DNA of 64,000 nt from positions 103,900 to 167,899 of the forward strand of contig CAZMQI010000001.1 in the NCBI GenBank assembly GCA_964568585.1, in the 5' to 3' direction. Both the position numbers and the translations under genes were made by a program. Below, one piece after another: positions 7,082 through 63,009 of this stretch; the stretch's first letter is position 1, and the number at the start of each line of letters is the position of its first letter. The stretch comes from an uncultured Rhodospirillales bacterium (GTDB lineage Bacteria; Pseudomonadota; Alphaproteobacteria; UBA9219; RGZA01). The notes below the pieces were generated by a model. It was not told the DNA's origin, searched no databases, and saw only the letters and a program-made list of their open reading frames with translations.

Positions 7082-7303
7082 TTGGAAGACTTTGTAGTAA
7101 AAGACAGCAACGGCACCGTGTTGGTAGATGGCGATAGCGTGACACTTATCAAAGACCTGCCTGTAAAAGGAACATCCGTAACGCTTAAACGCGGCACGCT
7201 CGTCAAAGGCATCCGCCTGACCGATAATGATGAATTAGTGGAATGCAACGTACAAAAAGTAAAAGGGCTAGTTCTCAAGACCTGCTTTTTGAAAAAAGCT
7301 TAA
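7082..7303 (+). CDS. PhnA/YjdM C-terminal domain protein
   Basis: VKDSNG..L.DGDSVTLIKDLPVKG...LKRGT; TTG start after AAGGAA. Confidence 0.85.
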   Translation: MEDFVVKDSNGTVLVDGDSVTLIKDLPVKGTSVTLKRGTLVKGIRLTDNDELVECNVQKVKGLVLKTCFLKKA

Positions 7304-8418
7304 ACGGTTTCGATAATTGAATGCGGGTTTTGAAAACCTGCTTTGCACTCATTCGGCAACAATTTCATTTTGGTGAACTCCGGATCAATCCAGACCAGCC
7401 GTTGATCACTGCCGATATAACCCTTTAATGTGTCATCCCACACCATGCCTTTGAACGGTGCATCAATCGATTTAAGGACCTTATCGTTCACCAAATCGAT
7501 AAGCACGATATTCCCCGCAAGCGGATTGGTCACAACGGCGCGCGTATGATCATCATTCAATGTCACACTCAATATTTCGCCTTTAATCTGGCGCCCCAAA
7601 TCCTTACCCCAATTCAGCACACGCAACGGCTGAACGCCATCAACGCTGATATAGACATACCCGCTATTATTGGGGTCGGCAGTACGCATATCCGCTGTTC
7701 CCATCTGGCGCAACGGGCCTGATAGCGCGATAATTTTCCCGTGTTTGGTTACTTGAAAATGGCCAATTACTTGCTGGGGGTCATCAATGGTCAACTCTCT
7801 CACGATATCGCCCTTACCCGCAATATCTACAAAAGTGATGGATGATTTTGCAACCCGCAACCCCTTGCGTGGATCGCCACGCTCATCTGCTTTTATGCCG
7901 GAGGCAGCAATCGCCAATGTGTTATCGGCAACACGGTGACAATCATGAAGGCCACCGGGCGTCACATAAATCTCTTCGCCCGGCTGATAGGTTTCAGGAT
8001 CATAAGCAGCATAATATCCCTTGCCTGTGTCGAGCGAAACGCGGGCAAGATAGAATGCACCCTTTTCTTTAATGTAACTGCCATGCCCATAAAACCAATT
8101 ATTACCCGCACTGCTGATTGGTGTAACAATTTCAGTATCAAAATCCACTATGGCTGCATGTGCGCCCCACTTTTCCATCCCAAGGTAACGTGATGGATAT
8201 TTTGGATGACGGATGAACGTATGCGCTGGAAAGCCAAGCTCGATTTCTTTGGTTGTCTGTGTTGTCAGATTTGCAAATACAGCTTTGTTTGAAGACCCGA
8301 CGACAATACGTTCTTGTGCTGCGGCACGCGCCGCAAATACATGAAGCGGATTGATGGCCGAACCGGCAGCACAAATCGCCATGACGTATTTTAGAAAATC
8401 GCGCCGCGAATAATCCAT
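7300..8418 (-). CDS. Tat-exported DUF1513-like beta-propeller protein, paralogue 2 (372 aa)
   Basis: Start MDYSRRDFLK twin-arginine signal; WFYGHG motif; colinear with 8465..9583. Confidence 0.75.
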   Translation of the reverse strand: MDYSRRDFLKYVMAICAAGSAINPLHVFAARAAAQERIVVGSSNKAVFANLTTQTTKEIELGFPAHTFIRHPKYPSRYLGMEKWGAHAAIVDFDTEIVTPISSAGNNWFYGHGSYIKEKGAFYLARVSLDTGKGYYAAYDPETYQPGEEIYVTPGGLHDCHRVADNTLAIAASGIKADERGDPRKGLRVAKSSITFVDIAGKGDIVRELTIDDPQQVIGHFQVTKHGKIIALSGPLRQMGTADMRTADPNNSGYVYISVDGVQPLRVLNWGKDLGRQIKGEILSVTLNDDHTRAVVTNPLAGNIVLIDLVNDKVLKSIDAPFKGMVWDDTLKGYIGSDQRLVWIDPEFTKMKLLPNECKAGFQNPHSIIETV

Positions 8419-8464
8419 ATATAAAAAGCTCGTGCCGAAGAAATCTGTTTTTGAAAAGCTGTAC

Positions 8465-9583
8465 TTAGACTGTTTCGAAAATTGAATGAGAACTGCTGAA
8501 CCCCGGCTTGCATTCAATAGGCAGGCGGGTCATTTTTTTGAAGTCAGGATCAATCCAGACCAAATTCCGTTCAGATCCGATATACCCTTTTAACGTTGGG
8601 TCCCAGACAATTCCTCTAAATGGCGCATCAATTGACCTGATAACTTTATCATTCACGATATCAAGTAACATCACATTTCCTGCAAGCGGATTGGTCACCG
8701 CCGCCCGCGTGTGGTCATCATTCAAGGCAATGCTTAATATCTCGCCCTTGATTTGACGGTTTAATTGATATCCCCAATCCAGCAACTTAAGCGGCTCTTT
8801 TCCATCCTTGCTGATATAGATATAGCCACTATTGTCCTTGCTGGCGGTACGCATGTCATTGCCCTTAAACTGGCGCACGGGGCTAGTCAGCGCAATGATT
8901 TTTCCATGCTTAGTCACTTCAAAATGACCAATAATCTGTTCCTTATCATCAATCGTCAATTCTCGGGTAACCTTCCCCGAACCGATGATATCAACAAATG
9001 TAAGGGCCGATTTTGCAACACGATTGCCCTTACGGGGGTCACCATAATCATCAGCTTTCATACCGGAACTGGTCACGGCAAACGTATTATCTGCCATACG
9101 GTGACATTCATGAAGCCCCCCGGGCGTTGTCAGAATTGCTTCGCCCGGCTCGAAGGTTTCATGATCATACGCGACCATATAGCCCTTACCTGTGTCCAAG
9201 GAAACACGTGACACATAGAATGCTTTCTTTTCTGCTACATAGCGGCCATGCCCATAGAAATGATTTTTTCCGCCACTCGAGAGTTGTTTCACTTCTTCGG
9301 TATCAAAATCCACCACGGCAGCATGCGGTCCCCATTTTTCCATAGCCAAATAACGCATTGGATATTTTGGGTGACGCAACAAGCTATGCGCCAGAAACCC
9401 GATTTCAATATGCTTGGCAGTTTGCTTTGTAAGATTGGCACACACCGCTTTGGAGAGTGAACCAACCACCAGAAATTCTTGTGAAGACGCCGTTGCTGCA
9501 ACCACGCGAAGTGGATCTATGGCCACGCCGGTGGCCGAAAGTGCCATGACATATTTCAGAAAATCGCGCCGTGAATGCTCCAT
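8465..9583 (-). CDS. Tat-exported DUF1513-like beta-propeller protein, paralogue 1 (372 aa)
   Basis: MEHSRRDFLK twin-arginine signal; HFYGHG, PGGLHECH, IGHF motifs. Confidence 0.75.
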   Translation of the reverse strand: MEHSRRDFLKYVMALSATGVAIDPLRVVAATASSQEFLVVGSLSKAVCANLTKQTAKHIEIGFLAHSLLRHPKYPMRYLAMEKWGPHAAVVDFDTEEVKQLSSGGKNHFYGHGRYVAEKKAFYVSRVSLDTGKGYMVAYDHETFEPGEAILTTPGGLHECHRMADNTFAVTSSGMKADDYGDPRKGNRVAKSALTFVDIIGSGKVTRELTIDDKEQIIGHFEVTKHGKIIALTSPVRQFKGNDMRTASKDNSGYIYISKDGKEPLKLLDWGYQLNRQIKGEILSIALNDDHTRAAVTNPLAGNVMLLDIVNDKVIRSIDAPFRGIVWDPTLKGYIGSERNLVWIDPDFKKMTRLPIECKPGFSSSHSIFETV

Positions 9584-10298: not shown

Positions 10299-10379
10299 AC
10301 GTGTTGGTTTATCGCGCCATCCTTAAATAGGCCTAAAAAACCTTTTTGCCAGCGTCAAAAGCATTGTTACCATTAAATA

Positions 10380-10408
10380 TTGACAAAAAACGTGTTTCTA
10401 ATGAAAAT
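10380..10408 (+). promoter_or_regulatory. Putative sigma70 promoter of SAM-II leader 1
   Basis: TTGACA 10380-10385, 17-nt spacer, GAAAAT 10403-10408. Confidence 0.55.
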
Positions 10409-10432
10409 GATGTTGGTTCGTGAAAACGTCCC

Positions 10433-10480
10433 CGTAGGATTTGAGGGTCAGCTTGCAACTACGCTAAAAATGCTAAAGCG
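10433..10480 (+). ncRNA. SAM-II (SAM-alpha) riboswitch aptamer, copy 1
   Basis: P1 CGTAG/CTACG enclosing GATTTG...GCTTGCA, followed by AAATGCTAAAGC; matches SAM-II consensus as recalled; homologous to copy at 59977. Confidence 0.8.
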
Positions 10481-10667
10481 CTACGGCGAGGAAAGACGTG
10501 AAGTCCTCGAATAGCATGAGTTACCATGCTATGCGCTGTAGTCCCCGGTTGAGGCGGATTTCATTTGTCTGCGCCCAGCTGTACCACAAGGACTAGTCAG
10601 CGCAGCTTATGTTCACCAACATACTCTGCATCGGGTTCAAGAAGGCGCCGCAATGCGCTTGGTTTTT
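10481..10667 (+). ncRNA. Structured extension of SAM-II leader 1 (three-way junction, further stems, terminator-like hairpin)
   Basis: CTACGGCG/CGCTGTAG closing stem with inner hairpins GAGGA/TCCTC and ATAGCATG/CATGCTAT; CTGCGC/GCGCAG stem; AGGCGC/GCGCTT followed by GGTTTTT; same order of elements in copy 2. Confidence 0.6.
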
Positions 10668-10680
10668 ATGCAGGTTACGT

Positions 10681-13227
10681 ATGATGATTACTCTTCAACC
10701 ACTTACACTTCAGATAACGGGGCCACAGCCCCGCCTGCGCGCACAACTCCAAGCCGCATGGCCGCGCAAGGTACATAGCGCGCGACGTTCCCGCGCTATT
10801 AATAGCATCACCAAACACATCAAAGATGCGCTGCCCGGGGATTACAAAGGCGATGTAAGCGTGTTTTTAAGCAACGAAGTTGAAGAAGCACACATCCCAT
10901 CTCAAGGATTTATCTATCATCTCAATCAACAAAATATTTTAACGCGGCAAACCATCCACGAAGCGGATAACGCTGCGCTGCTGTATATCCATTATGAAAC
11001 AGCGTTGGCAATGGATGAACTAGATGATGATTGTGAAGAAACAGTGCCCCAATCACGCATCGAACAAATCAAGCAATGGCAAAAAGAAACGGTGAAAGCA
11101 GTATTCCAATGCATGGCGGATACCGCCCTCAGCATGGCGGCTCAAACCGCATTGCGTGGCACGATGGCAGGGCTGAACAAGCTTGGCGCATTACTTGCCA
11201 AAGCCAGCAGCGCAGCGACCAAAGGAAATCCAGTTGCTAAACAAACCACACAAAAAGCGGTAACGCGTGATATCGCCAGCACGCTATCGGATCTACGCAG
11301 CAATTTGAATGTTGCAAGCACCAACAGCGTGAAACCGCCGACCAAAGCACAGCTCGCCATCCGCCAACAATTGAACAAGCTGAATAAGATTACACCGCCA
11401 CTGCAAAAAGCTGTTACGAAGGTCGCGCAACCGGTCAAAGCTGCGCCAAACCTAAAAACTGCACCGCTTTTGAAAACGGTTTTAAAAACAGCAAGCACCA
11501 CAAAAACGGTGCCAATTCAAAAAACACAGATTAAAACAGCCGCCGCACCTATTAAAGCTGCACTGTTTGCCACGCTTGCAAAACCAGAAGTGAAATTAAA
11601 CCGCGACATTAAAATCGCGCCACGCGTGAGTATCATCCCCGCGCGTGTGATAACGCGAATTGCAGAACGCACAGCTGTGCCGAGCGTTGCAGTAACACCA
11701 ACACGCTTTACATCGCATATAACCAAAGTTATCACGCAAAAAACGACCCAGCAGCAGACAACGCAGCCAGGCATTGTGGTTCCTGCCCGTATTACCACGC
11801 AGATTGCACGACCCACCGCGCGGTTCCAGATTAACCGCACCGTTATTCCAACGCTGCGTATCACGCCAACCGTCATCGCAATATATATCGCGGCTAACCC
11901 TATTGGGATTACTGTGCCACCTGCACGTACTACTCAAAAAACAGCGCAGCCTGAAAAAGCAACGCAACCTGCGGCACAGGAAACCGCTATTCTTAAAACC
12001 ACTGCTCCTAAAACGATTGCTGCTAAAGCAACGAACCCAACAACCACCGCGCCATTACAAGGCAGACCACAAGCACAACTGCAACGTATCGCAAGGCAAC
12101 CCGCGCAATACTCAGCCATCGCAACGTCAATACCAACCCATCGCAACCCGCCACGCAGTTTTAGTCACATTGCGCTTGTGCCCTCCACCATTAGCCGTGT
12201 GCATATACAACCGCGCTTTGATACTAGCAGCATAGCTGCGCCTGTCAGCACACCGCAACAAACCTATACAACTGCGCCAAGCACTCCGGTTGCACCACCG
12301 CCTTCTTTTAGTGCGCCGACGATTGAACAACCAAGAAGCGAGCCGTCACACATCGCCGCGCAGCCGCCTGCACAACCACCGGTACAACAAACTGCATTAC
12401 CAACTGAAACAAAGCCAACTGAAGTGGCTGCTGCGCCGCCAACGCCAATTACCACCACTGCGCCACCAGACAAACGTGGTGACGTGACTTCTCCAGAACA
12501 CAAACAAGAACCAAAACTGCTGGACACCCAAGGAACAGCTCCTGAACCTACAAAACCTGTAGTAAAGCCTGTTGCTCCACAAAAGGTTGATGGCACGCAA
12601 AAAGAACCGCTGACCTCACCAACTAATAACCCTATCCCACCAGTTGTGCGCGTTGGCCAGCAAGAACAGCAGAAACCAGCTATTGAAGACCAACCGACTG
12701 GTGGTGCGTTACCGCTCAACAACCCTAAAAACGGGAACCCAACTACACAGGATAACAAGCCGCCAATCGCCCCTCCTGTTCCCAATGAACCACCCACGCC
12801 ATTACCACTACCGCTACCAATACAACCACCAAAACCCGATAGAATTATTGCAGAGCCGCAAGAGCCATCAAATGTGCTTCCGTTCCAGCCAGCTAATCCT
12901 GATAAAGTAGGAAGAGCTGAGCCAGAACCCTTTAAAGAAAAACAGAATGCAGAAGTTGTTAGCTTAGAAGAAAAAAGATTAGAAAAATCCAAAAGCCTTC
13001 CACGATCACGCGTCGCTGAACGTGTTGAGGATCCACACGGCCTAATAATTAAAGTTAGCGGCGGCACCGGCACATACAAAGAATTTGTCGGATACATTGA
13101 ATACAATCACATCCCATTGCTTGCCCAACCTGAAGGAAAGCCACCGTCATCACCACCTGAACGTCCTAAAGCGCAGAAATCAGGTCAAAGCAAACTAGGA
13201 AAAGTGCTGGAAGGACCTTGCGGATAA
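10681..13227 (+). CDS. Hypothetical protein with globular N-terminus and long Pro/Thr/Ala/Gln-rich low-complexity region (848 aa)
   Basis: 2.5-kb open frame; start placed after the leader hairpin (track start 10609 lies inside the RNA leader); no family recognised. Confidence 0.7.
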   Translation: MMITLQPLTLQITGPQPRLRAQLQAAWPRKVHSARRSRAINSITKHIKDALPGDYKGDVSVFLSNEVEEAHIPSQGFIYHLNQQNILTRQTIHEADNAALLYIHYETALAMDELDDDCEETVPQSRIEQIKQWQKETVKAVFQCMADTALSMAAQTALRGTMAGLNKLGALLAKASSAATKGNPVAKQTTQKAVTRDIASTLSDLRSNLNVASTNSVKPPTKAQLAIRQQLNKLNKITPPLQKAVTKVAQPVKAAPNLKTAPLLKTVLKTASTTKTVPIQKTQIKTAAAPIKAALFATLAKPEVKLNRDIKIAPRVSIIPARVITRIAERTAVPSVAVTPTRFTSHITKVITQKTTQQQTTQPGIVVPARITTQIARPTARFQINRTVIPTLRITPTVIAIYIAANPIGITVPPARTTQKTAQPEKATQPAAQETAILKTTAPKTIAAKATNPTTTAPLQGRPQAQLQRIARQPAQYSAIATSIPTHRNPPRSFSHIALVPSTISRVHIQPRFDTSSIAAPVSTPQQTYTTAPSTPVAPPPSFSAPTIEQPRSEPSHIAAQPPAQPPVQQTALPTETKPTEVAAAPPTPITTTAPPDKRGDVTSPEHKQEPKLLDTQGTAPEPTKPVVKPVAPQKVDGTQKEPLTSPTNNPIPPVVRVGQQEQQKPAIEDQPTGGALPLNNPKNGNPTTQDNKPPIAPPVPNEPPTPLPLPLPIQPPKPDRIIAEPQEPSNVLPFQPANPDKVGRAEPEPFKEKQNAEVVSLEEKRLEKSKSLPRSRVAERVEDPHGLIIKVSGGTGTYKEFVGYIEYNHIPLLAQPEGKPPSSPPERPKAQKSGQSKLGKVLEGPCG

Positions 13228-13232
13228 CCATC

Positions 13233-14507
13233 ATGGCGCAACTACACATCCTTCATTTAAATGATACTAATCGCCGTGCATTTGATGCATTAACGCGCCC
13301 AGAAATCGATATCGATGAATGTATCCGCTTAACCGAACCTGCCAGCGATACAGTGGTGGATGATTTTATCAAGGCACATAAAGAGCTTTTTCTGAAACCG
13401 CAACGCGCCATCCGAACCAATGGCGAAGTTGTAAAATTATATTCAGTTGATGATACGGTTGACATCACAACAATCCGGCATGCACAAGACGGTTCAGCGG
13501 AACACGCGGCCTATGTAAAAAAAGCACGAACAGTTATCAGTGCAGATATCAAAGGCAATGAATTAATCTTGGGAACGGATCCCATACACGAACTTGGTGT
13601 GTTATTTCGTTCTGATGATGGCAAGCCATGGTCAATCGCAACCACGCGCACTATCCCGAAAATCGATTACATCAAAGATCTGCTTAATCACCCGCAAATT
13701 GAAGGGCTGGATACACTACTTGGCATGCATACTTATGAAAAAAATGGCCAGCAGACAAAAGTATTAATCCGTTACTACAACTTTAAACCACCTGTTGGCG
13801 TTCAAGCTTTGCCAATGTTCATTCGTCATGTTGATGGCCGTGTAGAAACTCTTTATACGCCGGAAGATTTTTTTCGCGATAAATTTCTTCCTGAAGACAG
13901 GCTCACACAACATCTTGAGGGCCTATATGGCAATCAAATCGAACGAAAATTATTAATGCTCAGCGATTTAGCAGAATGTGAGCCATTGGTAGAAGAGAAG
14001 CGTCATTTCGTTATCTATAAAACCAAACGAACCGCATATGATAACAAGAACATTTCAGGATTGTTCTTACAAACCGATGCTAATGACAGCCCAGTCATTG
14101 CACGGGATGATGCAACAGCACTTGATAAATTATTCAAATGGATTGATACACAGCCCGCAGCCACTCATATTCCATATGTAGAGGCATGGACCGAGCAAGG
14201 ATTTAAGACAACTAAAACAAATGCAGGCGTCAAGGTTGAATTCAGCGATAGCAGTTATCTGATAGATACTGGAACCAAACTATCCCTTCACGGCGATGCG
14301 AAGGAAGATTATCTGCGCGTCATGTTGCAGCATGCCAAAGAAAACTGGGGTGGCGCATTCAAAATCGAAAGCGGCACAGATGCAGAAATACAATTACTGG
14401 AAAGACTTGCCGTTGAAATGAAGGTTACGCTCATCAAGCCTCTTGGCTCGCCATCAAGGCCAACGCACCGCAGCACGCGCGCAGCCGCGCCACGCGCAGC
14501 CGCATAA
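13233..14507 (+). CDS. Hypothetical protein with possible C-terminal LPD7-like domain
   Basis: ATG 5 nt after upstream stop; C-terminal VMLQHAKENWGGAFKIESGTDAEIQLLERLAVEMKV resembles LPD7. Confidence 0.65.
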   Translation: MAQLHILHLNDTNRRAFDALTRPEIDIDECIRLTEPASDTVVDDFIKAHKELFLKPQRAIRTNGEVVKLYSVDDTVDITTIRHAQDGSAEHAAYVKKARTVISADIKGNELILGTDPIHELGVLFRSDDGKPWSIATTRTIPKIDYIKDLLNHPQIEGLDTLLGMHTYEKNGQQTKVLIRYYNFKPPVGVQALPMFIRHVDGRVETLYTPEDFFRDKFLPEDRLTQHLEGLYGNQIERKLLMLSDLAECEPLVEEKRHFVIYKTKRTAYDNKNISGLFLQTDANDSPVIARDDATALDKLFKWIDTQPAATHIPYVEAWTEQGFKTTKTNAGVKVEFSDSSYLIDTGTKLSLHGDAKEDYLRVMLQHAKENWGGAFKIESGTDAEIQLLERLAVEMKVTLIKPLGSPSRPTHRSTRAAAPRAAA

Positions 14508-59918: not shown

Positions 59919-59947
59919 TTGACAATCAATGCTTTCAACCTTAAATT
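59919..59947 (+). promoter_or_regulatory. Putative sigma70 promoter of SAM-II leader 2
   Basis: TTGACA 59919-59924, 17-nt spacer, TAAATT 59942-59947. Confidence 0.65.
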
Positions 59948-59976
59948 CAAGTCATGCTTTTTGAATAAAAAAGCAT

Positions 59977-60025
59977 CGCGGGATTTGAGGGCTTGCTTGC
60001 AACCGCGTCATCAAGTGCTAAAGCG
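59977..60025 (+). ncRNA. SAM-II (SAM-alpha) riboswitch aptamer, copy 2
   Basis: P1 CGCGG/CCGCG enclosing GATTTG...GCTTGCA, then CAAGTGCTAAAGC; P1 covaries with copy 1. Confidence 0.8.
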
Positions 60026-60262
60026 CTATAGCTGGAGGGGTTTCGTGATGCCTCTCATTTGAAAACGCAGTTTGTGAAACGCCTTTTCAAGCTCAGCTGT
60101 AGTCCCTCCAAATAACAGTTCGGGGTTTCATTCGCTCCTTCGGGTTTCATTTGCCCATGTTGTTTGTGAGATGTGATGTACAGCATGGGCGGTTCGTCTT
60201 TCCTTATAGACACAACCCCACATTCTCTAACGCGCTGTTTTGTGCGCGTTGGCAAATTTTAT
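60026..60262 (+). ncRNA. Structured extension of SAM-II leader 2
   Basis: CTATAGCTG/CAGCTGTAG closing stem; GAGGGG/CCTCTC and TTGAAAA/TTTTCAA hairpins; GCCCATGTTGT/ACAGCATGGGC stem; CTAACGCGC/GCGCGTTGG hairpin. Confidence 0.6.
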
Positions 60263-60303
60263 GTTTGTGCATCAAACGTATTTTTTAATCATGTGGAACT
60301 GTT

Positions 60304-63009
60304 ATGAGCGCACTAACCAACTTAAAAAAATCATTCAACCCGCTGAACCAGCATGGAGTATGGGCGCATAATGCGTTCAACACTGCATTGGATGATGCCG
60401 CAGGCACGATTGTAATTGCCAAAGACGGCACCATCCCGTTCATTACCAGCCAGCTCATCTCGCGTGAAGTACGTATTATTGGAAACGTTCAAATCGCCAA
60501 TGATGTTACCATCCGCCGCCAATCCGAAGTAATTGGCAGCGACCAACGCGGAACTGTTTTAAAACAATATTCGCTATTAATGGATTATTGCACCGTGCGC
60601 GACAGCACGCTGGAAGAAGGCGCAGGCTTTGCACATGGCGGTATCTCTGAAAACGCAACATGGGGCGCATGGTCATTCGCCAATATTGCGCCTGTGTTGA
60701 ATGGCACCCCTGAACACCCCATCACGGTTGAACCCGGCGCCTATATCGGTCCCGGCGTTTCCGTGCCAAAAGGCGCGCTGATTCATGCTGATAATTACTA
60801 TCTCGGAACCCCTGCGATTATTTTGCCCAGAACCGAACTTGATCAAGACACCCTTATTCCAAAGCAAGGTTGGGACAAGTTTTATGCGGGACAAGATGAC
60901 GAAGGCGATGCCATTTTCCGTCCTATCTTCTTTTCCGAAACTGATTTTGACTGGCTGAATGCGAAGACCGAACATCTACTCACCCTTGAACAAGGCAGCG
61001 ATGAATACAAAACAACTGCCAAAGCGATAGATCGCAAACTAAAACATGTATGGCGTTTGGATCGTCGCCCGCATCAGCTATCGCCATTCGGCAATTACGA
61101 TACCACCGAACTTGCCGATGTCGGCGTTGAAAGCTGGATTAATAATCAGGACCGTAATCTGGTGCATCGCCCCACCCTTGCCAACTGGCTGTGGTTCTAC
61201 CATCAAACCCAACACATCAAACAAGTTGCCTATCAGCAGGAAGCAGCCAAGCAACATGGCGATATTGTATGGCACAATGCGCCGCTGCAATCTGAAGTCC
61301 TGCATCTTGACCGCGCACAACGCATTCTGATTGCGACCAACAATCATGATATTCAAGATTTACAAAACCTGATTAAAGCGAAATTGTTCCTGCTTGGTGC
61401 GTATAAGCCAAAAGCAGACGAACACGCTGCATTGAACGATGCATTCCTGAATGCCAATATTATCATCAACAATGTGCAGCAGGCACTAACCGCCATCGCC
61501 GATGATGTGAACATCACCGTGCACCGCCAAGCAGTGATTGATCATGCATTGAAGCCTGTCAGCACCGCAGACCGCGTTGTGTTCACCGTTGATGCGCTGG
61601 AACGCACGACGCTCAGCGCACGTCTGGGTGAATTCGCAGCCATCTATGCCCATGTACCGCAAGCAAGCCAGAACATTCAACTGCGGGCAGATGCGCCACG
61701 CACCAACAGCACCATTGAAATCCCCGCATGGATTTTAGCAGTTAATGCTAACCGCACCAATTTCGTGACTTTGGCCGATGGCCCACATGTGCGTAGTTTT
61801 GCTGGCCATGTTCCGGTGATTGAAGATGGCGCAATCTTGCTTGGCAATGTTGACCTCAGTGGCGCTGTGCATCTGGATGGCGGCGTTGTACTAAAAAATG
61901 GCAGCGTATGCTCCGAACAATCCACCGCGCCTGTCACCATTCTTGGCAAATCCTATATCGAAGGTGCCATCACCCACACCGCAACCAAAGAACAAGCACC
62001 GGTTCTGGTTGATGGCCGCGTTGGCCCCATCGTCATCAAAGGCGGCCATATTCACGGCGCAGAAATTGATGCCTACACCTATAGCGAAGATGCCTTGCTG
62101 TCGGATGAAGCACTTATCAGAGGTGTTGTCGCCAAAGGCGCGATGAATATCGGCCAAAAGCATGCACGCAGCGCCAGCGAAAACGGCCAATTGGTATTCG
62201 AAGGCGGCAGCCCCAGCAAAAACGTGTTGAAAGAAGGTGGCAACGCATTGGCCGCGTATCACCAATGGTGGAATAAGCATCCCCATTTCAAGGATTTGCC
62301 ATTGGAAGAAGACGCGGTGAAGCAGCGCATTGCAGAAATCCATTCCAACGAATATGCCAACGCGCAACAAGAATTGGCCGACAAGGTTCGTGAACACGGC
62401 CCCTTATACAAAATCTCCGCCCCCCTCCAAGCCGCGATTTTCAATCTGACGCACGGTGCAGAAATCTTCGAAAAGCAAGGCGATGCACGCAATGCCGCCG
62501 AACTTCGCCTCCATATCGAAGGGATTGAATACCTGCTTGGGGCACGTGATACCCTTTCTGTTGGAGCTGCTGAACGGTTGGAAGCCAAGGGCAATCTAAG
62601 CCGCGCTGTACTTGCCTTGCAGGCTATCGGCAAGCGTGATGAAGTGATTGAGATTGCAAACTGGAACGACAGCGCATCTCCATACAGCTATACCCATGCC
62701 GATGCACTCGCTTTAGCGAAAAGCAGTCACCGCCCTATCACTGAAATCGCGCAACGCAATTTTGATCTGGCGGATGATGCACGTTTGAAAGGCGAAGCGG
62801 ATGTCAAACACGCCATGACTCCAGAGGATGCAATTAAACGCGGCCTTCGCGATACGGTGGATTACTATCCAAAACACATCACCTTGATTGCCCAGGGCAT
62901 CGACCATATCCCCACCTTGCTGGCACAAATACGCGCCGCCGCAGCAAATGTGGTGCATTTATCGCAGCAACATCGCAATATTGCAGCGACCCCCACTTTG
63001 ACCTTATAA
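60304..63009 (+). CDS. 901-aa protein with two divergent left-handed beta-helix (gamma-carbonic-anhydrase/CaiE/PaaY-like) domains
   Basis: RIIGNVQIANDVTI...GAYIGPGVSVPKGALI...LGTPA and VRSFAGHVPVIEDGAILLGNVDLSGAVHLDG...HIHGAEI, separated by helical segments. Confidence 0.7.
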   Translation: MSALTNLKKSFNPLNQHGVWAHNAFNTALDDAAGTIVIAKDGTIPFITSQLISREVRIIGNVQIANDVTIRRQSEVIGSDQRGTVLKQYSLLMDYCTVRDSTLEEGAGFAHGGISENATWGAWSFANIAPVLNGTPEHPITVEPGAYIGPGVSVPKGALIHADNYYLGTPAIILPRTELDQDTLIPKQGWDKFYAGQDDEGDAIFRPIFFSETDFDWLNAKTEHLLTLEQGSDEYKTTAKAIDRKLKHVWRLDRRPHQLSPFGNYDTTELADVGVESWINNQDRNLVHRPTLANWLWFYHQTQHIKQVAYQQEAAKQHGDIVWHNAPLQSEVLHLDRAQRILIATNNHDIQDLQNLIKAKLFLLGAYKPKADEHAALNDAFLNANIIINNVQQALTAIADDVNITVHRQAVIDHALKPVSTADRVVFTVDALERTTLSARLGEFAAIYAHVPQASQNIQLRADAPRTNSTIEIPAWILAVNANRTNFVTLADGPHVRSFAGHVPVIEDGAILLGNVDLSGAVHLDGGVVLKNGSVCSEQSTAPVTILGKSYIEGAITHTATKEQAPVLVDGRVGPIVIKGGHIHGAEIDAYTYSEDALLSDEALIRGVVAKGAMNIGQKHARSASENGQLVFEGGSPSKNVLKEGGNALAAYHQWWNKHPHFKDLPLEEDAVKQRIAEIHSNEYANAQQELADKVREHGPLYKISAPLQAAIFNLTHGAEIFEKQGDARNAAELRLHIEGIEYLLGARDTLSVGAAERLEAKGNLSRAVLALQAIGKRDEVIEIANWNDSASPYSYTHADALALAKSSHRPITEIAQRNFDLADDARLKGEADVKHAMTPEDAIKRGLRDTVDYYPKHITLIAQGIDHIPTLLAQIRAAAANVVHLSQQHRNIAATPTLTL

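Follow-up and report, generated by a model that had tools for sequence, protein, structure and literature searches.

The window, a stretch of 64,000 nucleotides (nt) at G000:C1:103900-167899, comes from the genome of an uncultured alphaproteobacterium (assembly of 2.19 Mb, 72 contigs, 48.9% G+C), and it carries two paralogous leaders that resemble SAM-II (S-adenosylmethionine, SAM) riboswitches. Copy 1 occupies 10380-10680 and copy 2 59919-60303; each contains a promoter-like site and a SAM-II-type aptamer core, and the two are 73% identical over their alignment. Behind copy 1 lies a gene (10681-13227) for a Pro/Thr-rich protein of 848 residues, in which no Pfam or NCBIfam family was found, and behind copy 2 a gene (60304-63009) for a protein of 901 residues, whose only match in Pfam and NCBIfam was a sub-threshold one to Hexapep (hexapeptide repeat). 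Among 5.8 billion sequences, the copy 2 protein had six homologue clusters, all unnamed or 'hypothetical' and all from metagenome-assembled genomes of Alphaproteobacteria; a paralogue or orthologue of it stands behind the leader L023 in genome G004. The SAM-II class is described in the text of Corbino et al. (2005; PMC1273637, the metA motif) as a compact RNA of less than 70 nt with one stem and a pseudoknot. In our view both loci are probably cis-acting 5' leaders whose aptamer is of the SAM-II class, with stem P1, an A-rich strand that makes up the P2b triplex region, and pseudoknot stem P2. They would belong to a subtype with an additional helix (P3) set into the 3' strand of P2, and the aptamer would be followed by a ligand-switched expression platform.

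Both leaders start with a promoter-like site, TTGACA-N17-GAAAAT at 10380-10408 in copy 1 and TTGACA-N17-TAAATT at 59919-59947 in copy 2 (plus strand, as for all leader features of the window below), and each matches 10 of 12 sigma-70 consensus positions, in agreement with the promoters that an earlier note on this DNA had marked. Stem P1 begins approximately 25-30 nt past the site. The core spans 10433-10479 in copy 1, as judged from the SAM_alpha alignment and pair counts, and 59977-60024 in copy 2, both ending with the A-rich strand L3 and the 3' strand of P2b. P1 (10433-10437/10459-10463 and 59977-59981/60003-60007) encloses loop L1 (10438-10458 and 59982-60002), which is 21 nt long in both copies, starts with GATTTGAGGG and ends with GCTTGCAA; the A-rich strand ending in GCTAAAGCG comes next. 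The 5' strands of the pseudoknot lie in L1, P2a as GAGGG (10443-10447; 59987-59991 in copy 2) and P2b as GCTT (10451-10454 in copy 1). The two copies have GATTTGAGGG-N3-GCTTGCAA, GCTAAAGCG and GCTGTAG-T-CCC in common, and the core motifs read by the earlier note were found in place in both.

Rfam was searched twice, with the curated gathering thresholds and then with reporting by E value. No match was found in the 64-kb window at the gathering thresholds (36 bits for SAM_alpha, RF00521; 44 bits for SAM-II long-loop, RF01726). In E-value mode both SAM-II models matched below these cut-offs: copy 1 scored 32.5 bits (E 1e-5) with SAM_alpha and 30.3 bits with SAM-II long-loop, and copy 2 scored 20.7 and 30.0 bits, with E values from 1e-5 to 9e-4 for the two copies. 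This was the comparison that the earlier note had suggested, and the two SAM-II families were the only credible ones for either region; the extension behind the core, for which the note had allowed that an existing family might already account, was matched by none. Neither copy reached the SAM_alpha gathering score, and for SAM-II long-loop the scores fell short of 44 bits and L1 had no hairpin. The SAM_alpha alignments kept all strongly conserved consensus blocks and missed the 3' tail of the family. P1 encloses an L1 with the GATTTGA and GCTTGCA blocks, the A-rich strand contains GCTAAAG and forms P2b with the loop (GCTT:AAGC), and the P2a pseudoknot joins the 5' part of L1 to the 3' tail, with P3 ahead of its 3' strand.

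P3 is a stem of seven base pairs (CTAYRGC) that opens right after GCTAAAGCG and closes 61-77 nt later (GCTGTAG). It covers 10481-10541 in copy 1 (closing stem 10481-10487/10535-10541) and 60026-60102 in copy 2 (60026-60032/60096-60102). One base further comes CCC(C) or CCCTC, complementary to (GA)GGG of L1: CCCC at 10543-10546 in copy 1, where the pairing with loop GGG is supported by family covariation, and CCCTC at 60104-60108 in copy 2, the partner of GAGGG. Since the CCC strand 3' of P3 pairs with the loop, P3 sits within the 3' strand of P2, between P2b (GCTT:AAGC) and P2a (GGG:CCC), and P2b, P3 and P2a meet at a junction. In both copies, therefore, the helix directly after GCTAAAGCG is followed by the 3' strand of P2a. 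Inside P3 there are two hairpins in each copy; in copy 1 these are P3a (10488-10508, with GTGA in its loop) and P3b (10512-10531).

To count pairs within the genus we used alignment A6, made with MAFFT from 15 sequences including an out-group, because matches of our covariance model R2 (see below) to the junction-bearing copies stop inside the junction. In A6, 95.6% of the cells were paired. The P3 closing stem was paired in 100% of cells at 7/7 pairs, although within the genus it showed G-U changes only, plus one double change from the out-group. P1, also 100% paired, reads CGTAG/CTACG in copy 1 and CGCGG/CCGCG in copy 2 and has two compensatory pairs over the 15 sequences (A6 pairs 8-35 and 9-34), so the covariation of P1 noticed earlier is borne out. 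P2a (GGG:CCC) was paired in 15/15 sequences. P2b was paired in 15/15 here and in 74-75 of the 75 sequences of the wider alignment A4, but its pairs are invariant, and this invariance is uninformative on pairing. MAFFT had shifted the P3a and P3b stems so that their columns could not be counted, and therefore the interior of each P3 was folded separately. Two hairpins of quite different sequence were obtained in 14/15 sequences, as expected from the three-way junction with differing stems that keep pairing in the earlier note; the exception was the cysG-type copy of G001, which has one hairpin and lacks P3b. The P3a loop always contains GTG, mostly as GTGA, while P3b varies freely in sequence and length.

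Further evidence for the insertion came from distant relatives. Alignment A4 holds 75 relatives in which P3 is a plain hairpin, taken among the matches listed in a scan with one genome per species across Alphaproteobacteria, which gave at least 119 stretches. Pairs were counted with a model of P1, P2b and P3 plus P2a, the last written as a pseudoknot. This analysis showed that 91.4% of the cells were paired, against 31-52% when the partners were slid, and that 13 of 21 pairs had double changes, with a covariation score reached by 0/500 shuffles. The double changes included 6/7 pairs of P3 and 5/5 pairs of P2a; at pair 27-88, for example, 34 of the 75 sequences had G-C and 25 had A-U. The strand past the insert changes together with the loop, as GAGGG/CCCTC here, AAGGA/TCCTT in L014, and GGAGC/GCTCC or GGGC/GCCC in further relatives. 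Because P3 and the P2a it interrupts covary across these relatives, the earlier proposal that the junction lies within the pseudoknot stem was correct, and the further homologues, where the extension might have failed to covary, do show covariation. A junction or helix at this place is a property of a large subtype, beyond the two loci of the window.

Model R2, built from A4, defines this P3-bearing SAM-II subtype, and it gave 54.9 bits for L001 and 55.1 bits for L002 despite mis-aligning the large junction. Among the relatives the insert at this same site takes forms of graded size: a few bases (L010, before metA), a plain hairpin (L009, L011, L020, L035), a hairpin with an internal loop (most of family f2) and a multi-branched form (L012, L048 and the whole genus). 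Most of the alphaproteobacterial aptamers with tail GCTAAAGCG among the matches listed were of the plain hairpin type CCACGG-loop-CCGTGG. The literature text found does not describe a helix placed within the P2 3' strand of SAM-II, and the supplementary alignments of PMC1273637 and PMC2864571 may well hold such inserts; the plain P3 hairpin may already be familiar to specialists as an optional insertion.

The aptamer-only model R1 was built after an initial pattern search, and both were applied to the genomes of the order. R1 found a SAM-II-type core in 53 of 71 genomes (E<=0.01; the unpublished genome G060 included). For the class we used an even sample of 151 genomes, namely 150 others and G000, in which Rfam SAM_alpha scored over its cut-off in 56/151 genomes and R2 gave 35 matches of at least 60 bits, in 25 of the 150 genomes other than G000. 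When these 35 places were compared manually with the Rfam SAM_alpha list, none was over the cut-off, 11 stood at 26-33.5 bits and 24 were unlisted; likewise, only 1 of 20 P3-type aptamers passed the Rfam threshold (L018, a sister copy, 40.3 bits). The P3-bearing subtype thus appears, as far as covariance models can tell, to be widespread in Alphaproteobacteria under the Rfam threshold. Since 0/35 strong P3 matches reach that cut-off, part of the alphaproteobacterial SAM-II regulon is invisible to standard pipelines, and a dedicated covariance model would recover the part now missed.

Some further arrangements were seen in these searches. Tandem riboswitches are one of them: for about 10 of the 35 strong P3 matches, a classical SAM_alpha aptamer stands 100-170 nt upstream. 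Examples of the P3 type from the class sample are G143:C1:179398-179600 and G199:C97:95554-95764. Several plain-hairpin aptamers of other Alphaproteobacteria (L084, L138, L164, L170 and others) are followed by tiny open reading frames (ORFs) ending Cys-Cys-(Cys)-Arg, possibly leader peptides or small peptides rich in Cys. In family f2, a single contig can carry two to four aptamers at distances of 600-3000 nt, each upstream of a short gene in which no Pfam family was found (G059:C7:51271-57721; G055:C44; G063:C136; G057:C247; G041:C421). In many f2 leaders (e.g., L042, L043, L044, L058) another hairpin region, around CAAGGGCTTTGCCG, is conserved between the T-run and the Shine-Dalgarno sequence (SD).

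The host genome has four exact-core copies, at C1:114337 (copy 1), C1:163881 (copy 2), C16:38736 and C20:10005, while the reversed pattern used as a control gave 0 matches. Orthologous leaders are kept in 4/4 other species of the genus, and in these sister species each leader type is retained together with its gene. The C20:10005 copy precedes the siroheme synthase CysG (Pfam families found on its orthologue L022), and the C16 copy is followed by a short ORF, behind which a protein of 187 residues with no family is encoded. A fifth, weaker SAM-II-like aptamer lies on the minus strand at about 8816-8932 of G000:C20 (L004:312-428 minus). It has a hairpin within L1, the only such copy in this genome, a short P3 with CGTGAA in its loop and a TCC strand, and it stands 24 nt upstream of an ORF with a MetX-like (homoserine O-acetyltransferase) N-terminus, as judged from the translation and not from a family scan. 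Equivalents of this aptamer are found divergent beside the cysG-type leader in G001, G003 and G004. Across the order, such aptamers precede HTS/MetA (L010, L055, L056), the Cys/Met enzyme family Cys_Met_Meta_PP, dependent on pyridoxal phosphate (PLP; L047), homocysteine S-methyltransferase (S-methyl_trans, L043) and CysG (L022); 20 of 30 proteins scanned behind aptamers had no Pfam family at E<=0.001. A context of methionine (Met) or SAM genes is absent for the two window genes and present for sister copies (CysG and the MetX-like ORF) and in the order.

Behind the junction, all downstream elements of the earlier note, namely the TTTCAT hairpin, the stems and the final terminator-like hairpin, were located. 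All 14 genus leaders have, 13-19 nt past the CCC strand, a hairpin with the 7-nt loop Y-T-C-A-T-N-N, closed by G-G-T/G-C-C-like pairs on stems that vary. In copy 1 it lies at 10554-10572 with the anticodon-loop-like loop TTCATTT; copy-2-type leaders have two, which in the window form a tandem pair (60122-60156, loops TTCATTC and TTCATTT). The 3' strand of P3 and the CCC strand together make up a strand A, and its downstream complement is a segment Y. In copy 1, Y (10590-10603) is predicted to pair with A (10533-10546) at -20.0 kcal/mol, and 8/300 shuffles were as low. Analysis of the genus leaders with RNAduplex and 300 dinucleotide shuffles showed that at most 11/300 shuffles were as low in 8 of 14, namely both copy-1-type, all four C16-type and two of the four cysG-type leaders; the distance from A to Y was 39-47 nt in all of these. 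The A:Y duplexes also appeared in unconstrained folds and in alifold consensus structures. For the copy-2 type, the unconstrained folds of G002 and G003 and a three-sequence alifold placed strand A, together with the bases behind it, in a helix with the region of a long stem; in the window (60153-60190) this stem, whose 5' strand overlaps the second TTCAT hairpin, remained a local hairpin in the unconstrained fold, and the duplex of the 14-nt probe did not exceed shuffles. The segment Y of copy 1 has two potential partners, namely A and the A-like stretch 10570-10586, with which it gives the 'long stem' of the earlier note. Since the 5' end of this A-like stretch overlaps the TTCAT hairpin, the helices form a chain and exclude one another. 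A small hairpin (10608-10623) follows in copy 1, and both leaders close with a terminator-like element: a hairpin at 10643-10660 and then GGTTTTTATG in copy 1 (10643-10670), 11 nt upstream of the likely start ATG at 10681 (inferred from the orthologue in L026), and a G+C-rich hairpin at 60227-60252 with the T-rich tail CAAATTTTAT in copy 2 (60227-60262), 42 nt upstream of the start ATG at 60304. By eye, the T-rich tail is conserved in the copy-1 type.

We read the part behind the junction as an expression platform rather than a second sensor, because it differs among the paralogues except for the TTCAT hairpin and A:Y, and no Rfam family matches it. Of the two alternatives left by the earlier note, the comparative data favor the extended SAM-II subclass, while the fused second RNA module (sensor, attenuator or released small RNA, sRNA) finds no support as a separate unit; the downstream part behaves as would a platform that competes with the 3' strand of the aptamer. 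A more specific form of the module would have the Y-T-C-A-T-N-N hairpins imitate the tRNA-Met anticodon arm, to be bound by a protein such as methionyl-tRNA synthetase or a tRNA-modifying enzyme, by which SAM would be integrated with a second signal. The loop resembles an anticodon loop and the thrS operator, the hairpin is kept in every genus leader and doubled in the copy-2 type although its stems vary, and a TTCAT-type hairpin also occurs within P3 of L012 from another family. No other non-coding TTCAT hairpin was found in the genome, as the five inspected matches outside the four leaders were all coding sequence; for the same reason the hairpin was rejected as a genome-wide regulatory motif. 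But the loop varies at positions 6-7, which seldom carry the purine expected at tRNA position 37. The metX copy, family f2 and the 75 plain-hairpin relatives lack the hairpin, and it may simply cap the A:Y helix, so we regard this reading as unlikely; the hairpin may nevertheless bind a protein, and an sRNA may arise as a by-product. Three other candidate roles were rejected: pairing of the TTCAT loop with the start codon region had no consistent complement (by eye), pairing with the A-rich L3 strand fitted copy 2 only (by eye), and 'TTTTATG' as a conserved start codon failed as the codon is CTG in L022 and L026.

Under the expression-platform reading, the ligand would lock strand A, i.e., the 3' strands of P3 and P2a, into the aptamer. 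Without ligand, A would pair with Y, 40-65 nt downstream, and enclose the TTCAT-loop hairpin or hairpins, and this pairing would refold the remaining leader, which ends in the terminator-like hairpin near the start codon. The motifs, the pairings with their covariation, the paralogues and orthologues and the distribution are observed, while SAM binding, the A:Y exchange and its output are all inferred. For the direction of the switch, OFF with SAM is slightly favored. Related aptamers precede metX, metA, cysG, the Cys/Met PLP enzyme and homocysteine methyltransferase, P3-type aptamers often stand in tandem behind a classical SAM-II aptamer, and characterized SAM-II leaders repress, according to the text of PMC1273637 and PMC9373788. 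ON with SAM is a tentative second choice, which draws on the wiring. In f2, the 5' half of a long hairpin before the T-run consists of strand A and the bases immediately 5' of it, and this was the minimum free energy structure in 6/8 folds. A survey of terminator position in 134 leaders found 77 without a T-run and 11 with a T-run and no adjacent hairpin; in 33 of the 46 leaders with a hairpin adjoining the T-run, the 5' strand of this hairpin started at or upstream of A, and in 13 it was entirely downstream of A. Copy 1 belongs to the former group only through a long-range pair and copy 2 to the latter. Moreover, Y overlaps the SD region in C16-type leaders, and the P3 3' strand is complementary to the SD in several plain-hairpin relatives (by eye). 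A small share is left for other or mixed outputs, e.g., RNA stability or sRNA release. The contrast between an ON-like structure and the OFF expected from gene functions is directly testable.

A bolder proposal joins the ON direction to the tRNA-Met idea: the P3-bearing SAM-II RNAs would form a separate, unannotated subclass, widespread and with the 3' strand of the aptamer wired directly to terminator or SD-pairing segments, so that their genes are ON with SAM, and the genus would have copied the cassette before lineage-specific genes together with an anticodon-arm-like hairpin that recruits a tRNA-Met-binding factor, coupling SAM to methionine charging. We hold this combination to be improbable.

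Several results weigh against the reading of the two loci as ligand-switched SAM-II leaders. Both window copies score under the Rfam curated cut-offs, and therefore membership of the subtype rests on the models built here. P2a (GGG:CCC) and P2b are invariant within the genus, so their support comes from distant relatives only. Both window genes lack a link to Met or SAM. With the 14-nt probe, A:Y was not above shuffles in three copy-2-type leaders, two cysG-type leaders and L023, and copy-2 orthologues keep the terminal hairpin, but their tails, by eye, do not look like clean T-runs. A look-up of RNA data sets for 10300-11500 gave none. Folding with the aptamer locked or free gave no consistent change in the accessibility of the SD or start codon. 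Finally, a naive reading of the wiring predicts ON, because strand A is complementary to the repressing element, and this clashes with the biosynthetic genes controlled.

It could also be that the main product is a riboswitch-derived sRNA of about 250-300 nt, ended at the terminator-like hairpin and acting in trans, with cis control secondary. The hairpins lie 11-42 nt upstream of the start codons, and SAM-II leaders of Sinorhizobium meliloti yield stable sRNAs according to the text of PMC9373788. Against this stand the lack, by eye, of a clean T-run in the copy-2 orthologues and the retention of each leader with its own downstream gene across species, and the sRNA has no predicted target, which makes the idea quite unlikely as an account of the main function.

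SAM is most likely the ligand of the cis-acting leaders, because these retain all strongly conserved SAM_alpha core nucleotides, and metX, metA, cysG and other Met/Cys genes stand behind sister copies. A changed ligand, e.g., S-adenosylhomocysteine or another adenosyl compound, would explain the non-methionine genes and the ON-like wiring, as many of the controlled genes have no known family and terminator or SD-pairing segments are linked directly to strand A. We think this very doubtful, however: the conserved core blocks are unchanged, the same subtype precedes metA, metX, cysG and the Cys/Met PLP enzyme, and a classical SAM_alpha aptamer directly precedes about 10 of the 35 strong class-wide matches. 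That the leaders are chance similarities or decaying non-functional duplicates, for which the sub-threshold Rfam scores alone could speak, is hardly credible in view of the orthologues with compensatory changes in 4/4 sister species, the family-wide covariation and the lack of reversed-pattern matches.

The leader cassette before metX, cysG and large lineage-restricted genes points to SAM status as a wider regulatory signal, and the subtype seems to have spread in this lineage to genes with no assigned function. On comparative grounds, the two leaders are a putative structural variant of the SAM-II class, with an inserted helix, a long leader with a TTCAT hairpin and other genes under control. 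As far as its published description goes, SAM_alpha (RF00521) shares with them P1, the GATTTGA and GCTTGCA blocks, the A-rich strand with GCTAAAG and the H-type pseudoknot P2, as well as a promoter just upstream, a terminator-like hairpin downstream and, for the sister copies, Met/SAM genes. The window leaders differ by the branched helix of 61-77 nt in the P2 3' strand, a leader length of 265-350 nt, sub-cut-off scores and two genes without a known methionine link. SAM-II long-loop (RF01726), as presented in the text of Weinberg et al. (2010; PMC2864571), also adds a hairpin to the SAM-II core and was the second-best (copy 1) or best (copy 2) weak match; its hairpin is in L1, whereas the window copies have a short L1 and the insert after GCTAAAGCG. 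Similar in layout are the leaders of metZ and metA in S. meliloti (Scheuer et al. 2022, PMC9373788), which likewise have an aptamer, a terminator and a distant start codon, with a possible sRNA end; they differ as classical aptamers before methionine genes, and neither an inserted junction nor a TTCAT hairpin is mentioned in the text consulted from PMC9373788.

A helix, or even a whole three-way junction, is tolerated within the ligand-responsive strand of a pseudoknot, which shows where a very small aptamer can expand, and the P3-bearing aptamer is a natural scaffold for engineering. In the preQ1-II riboswitch, three helices meet at the ligand site or pseudoknot. It is described in the text of PMC10907184 as a pseudoknot aptamer with a three-way junction. 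The likeness is the embedded extra helix; sequence and ligand are different, and the analogy is one of architecture only.

Two observations concern the neighborhood of copy 1. On the minus strand at 7300-9583 there are two tandem paralogous ORFs (405 and 372 amino acids) with RRDFLKYVMA-type N-termini, which look like twin-arginine signals. In the ORF after the copy 1 gene (13218-14507), LPD7, which is found in large polyvalent proteins, was matched below threshold.

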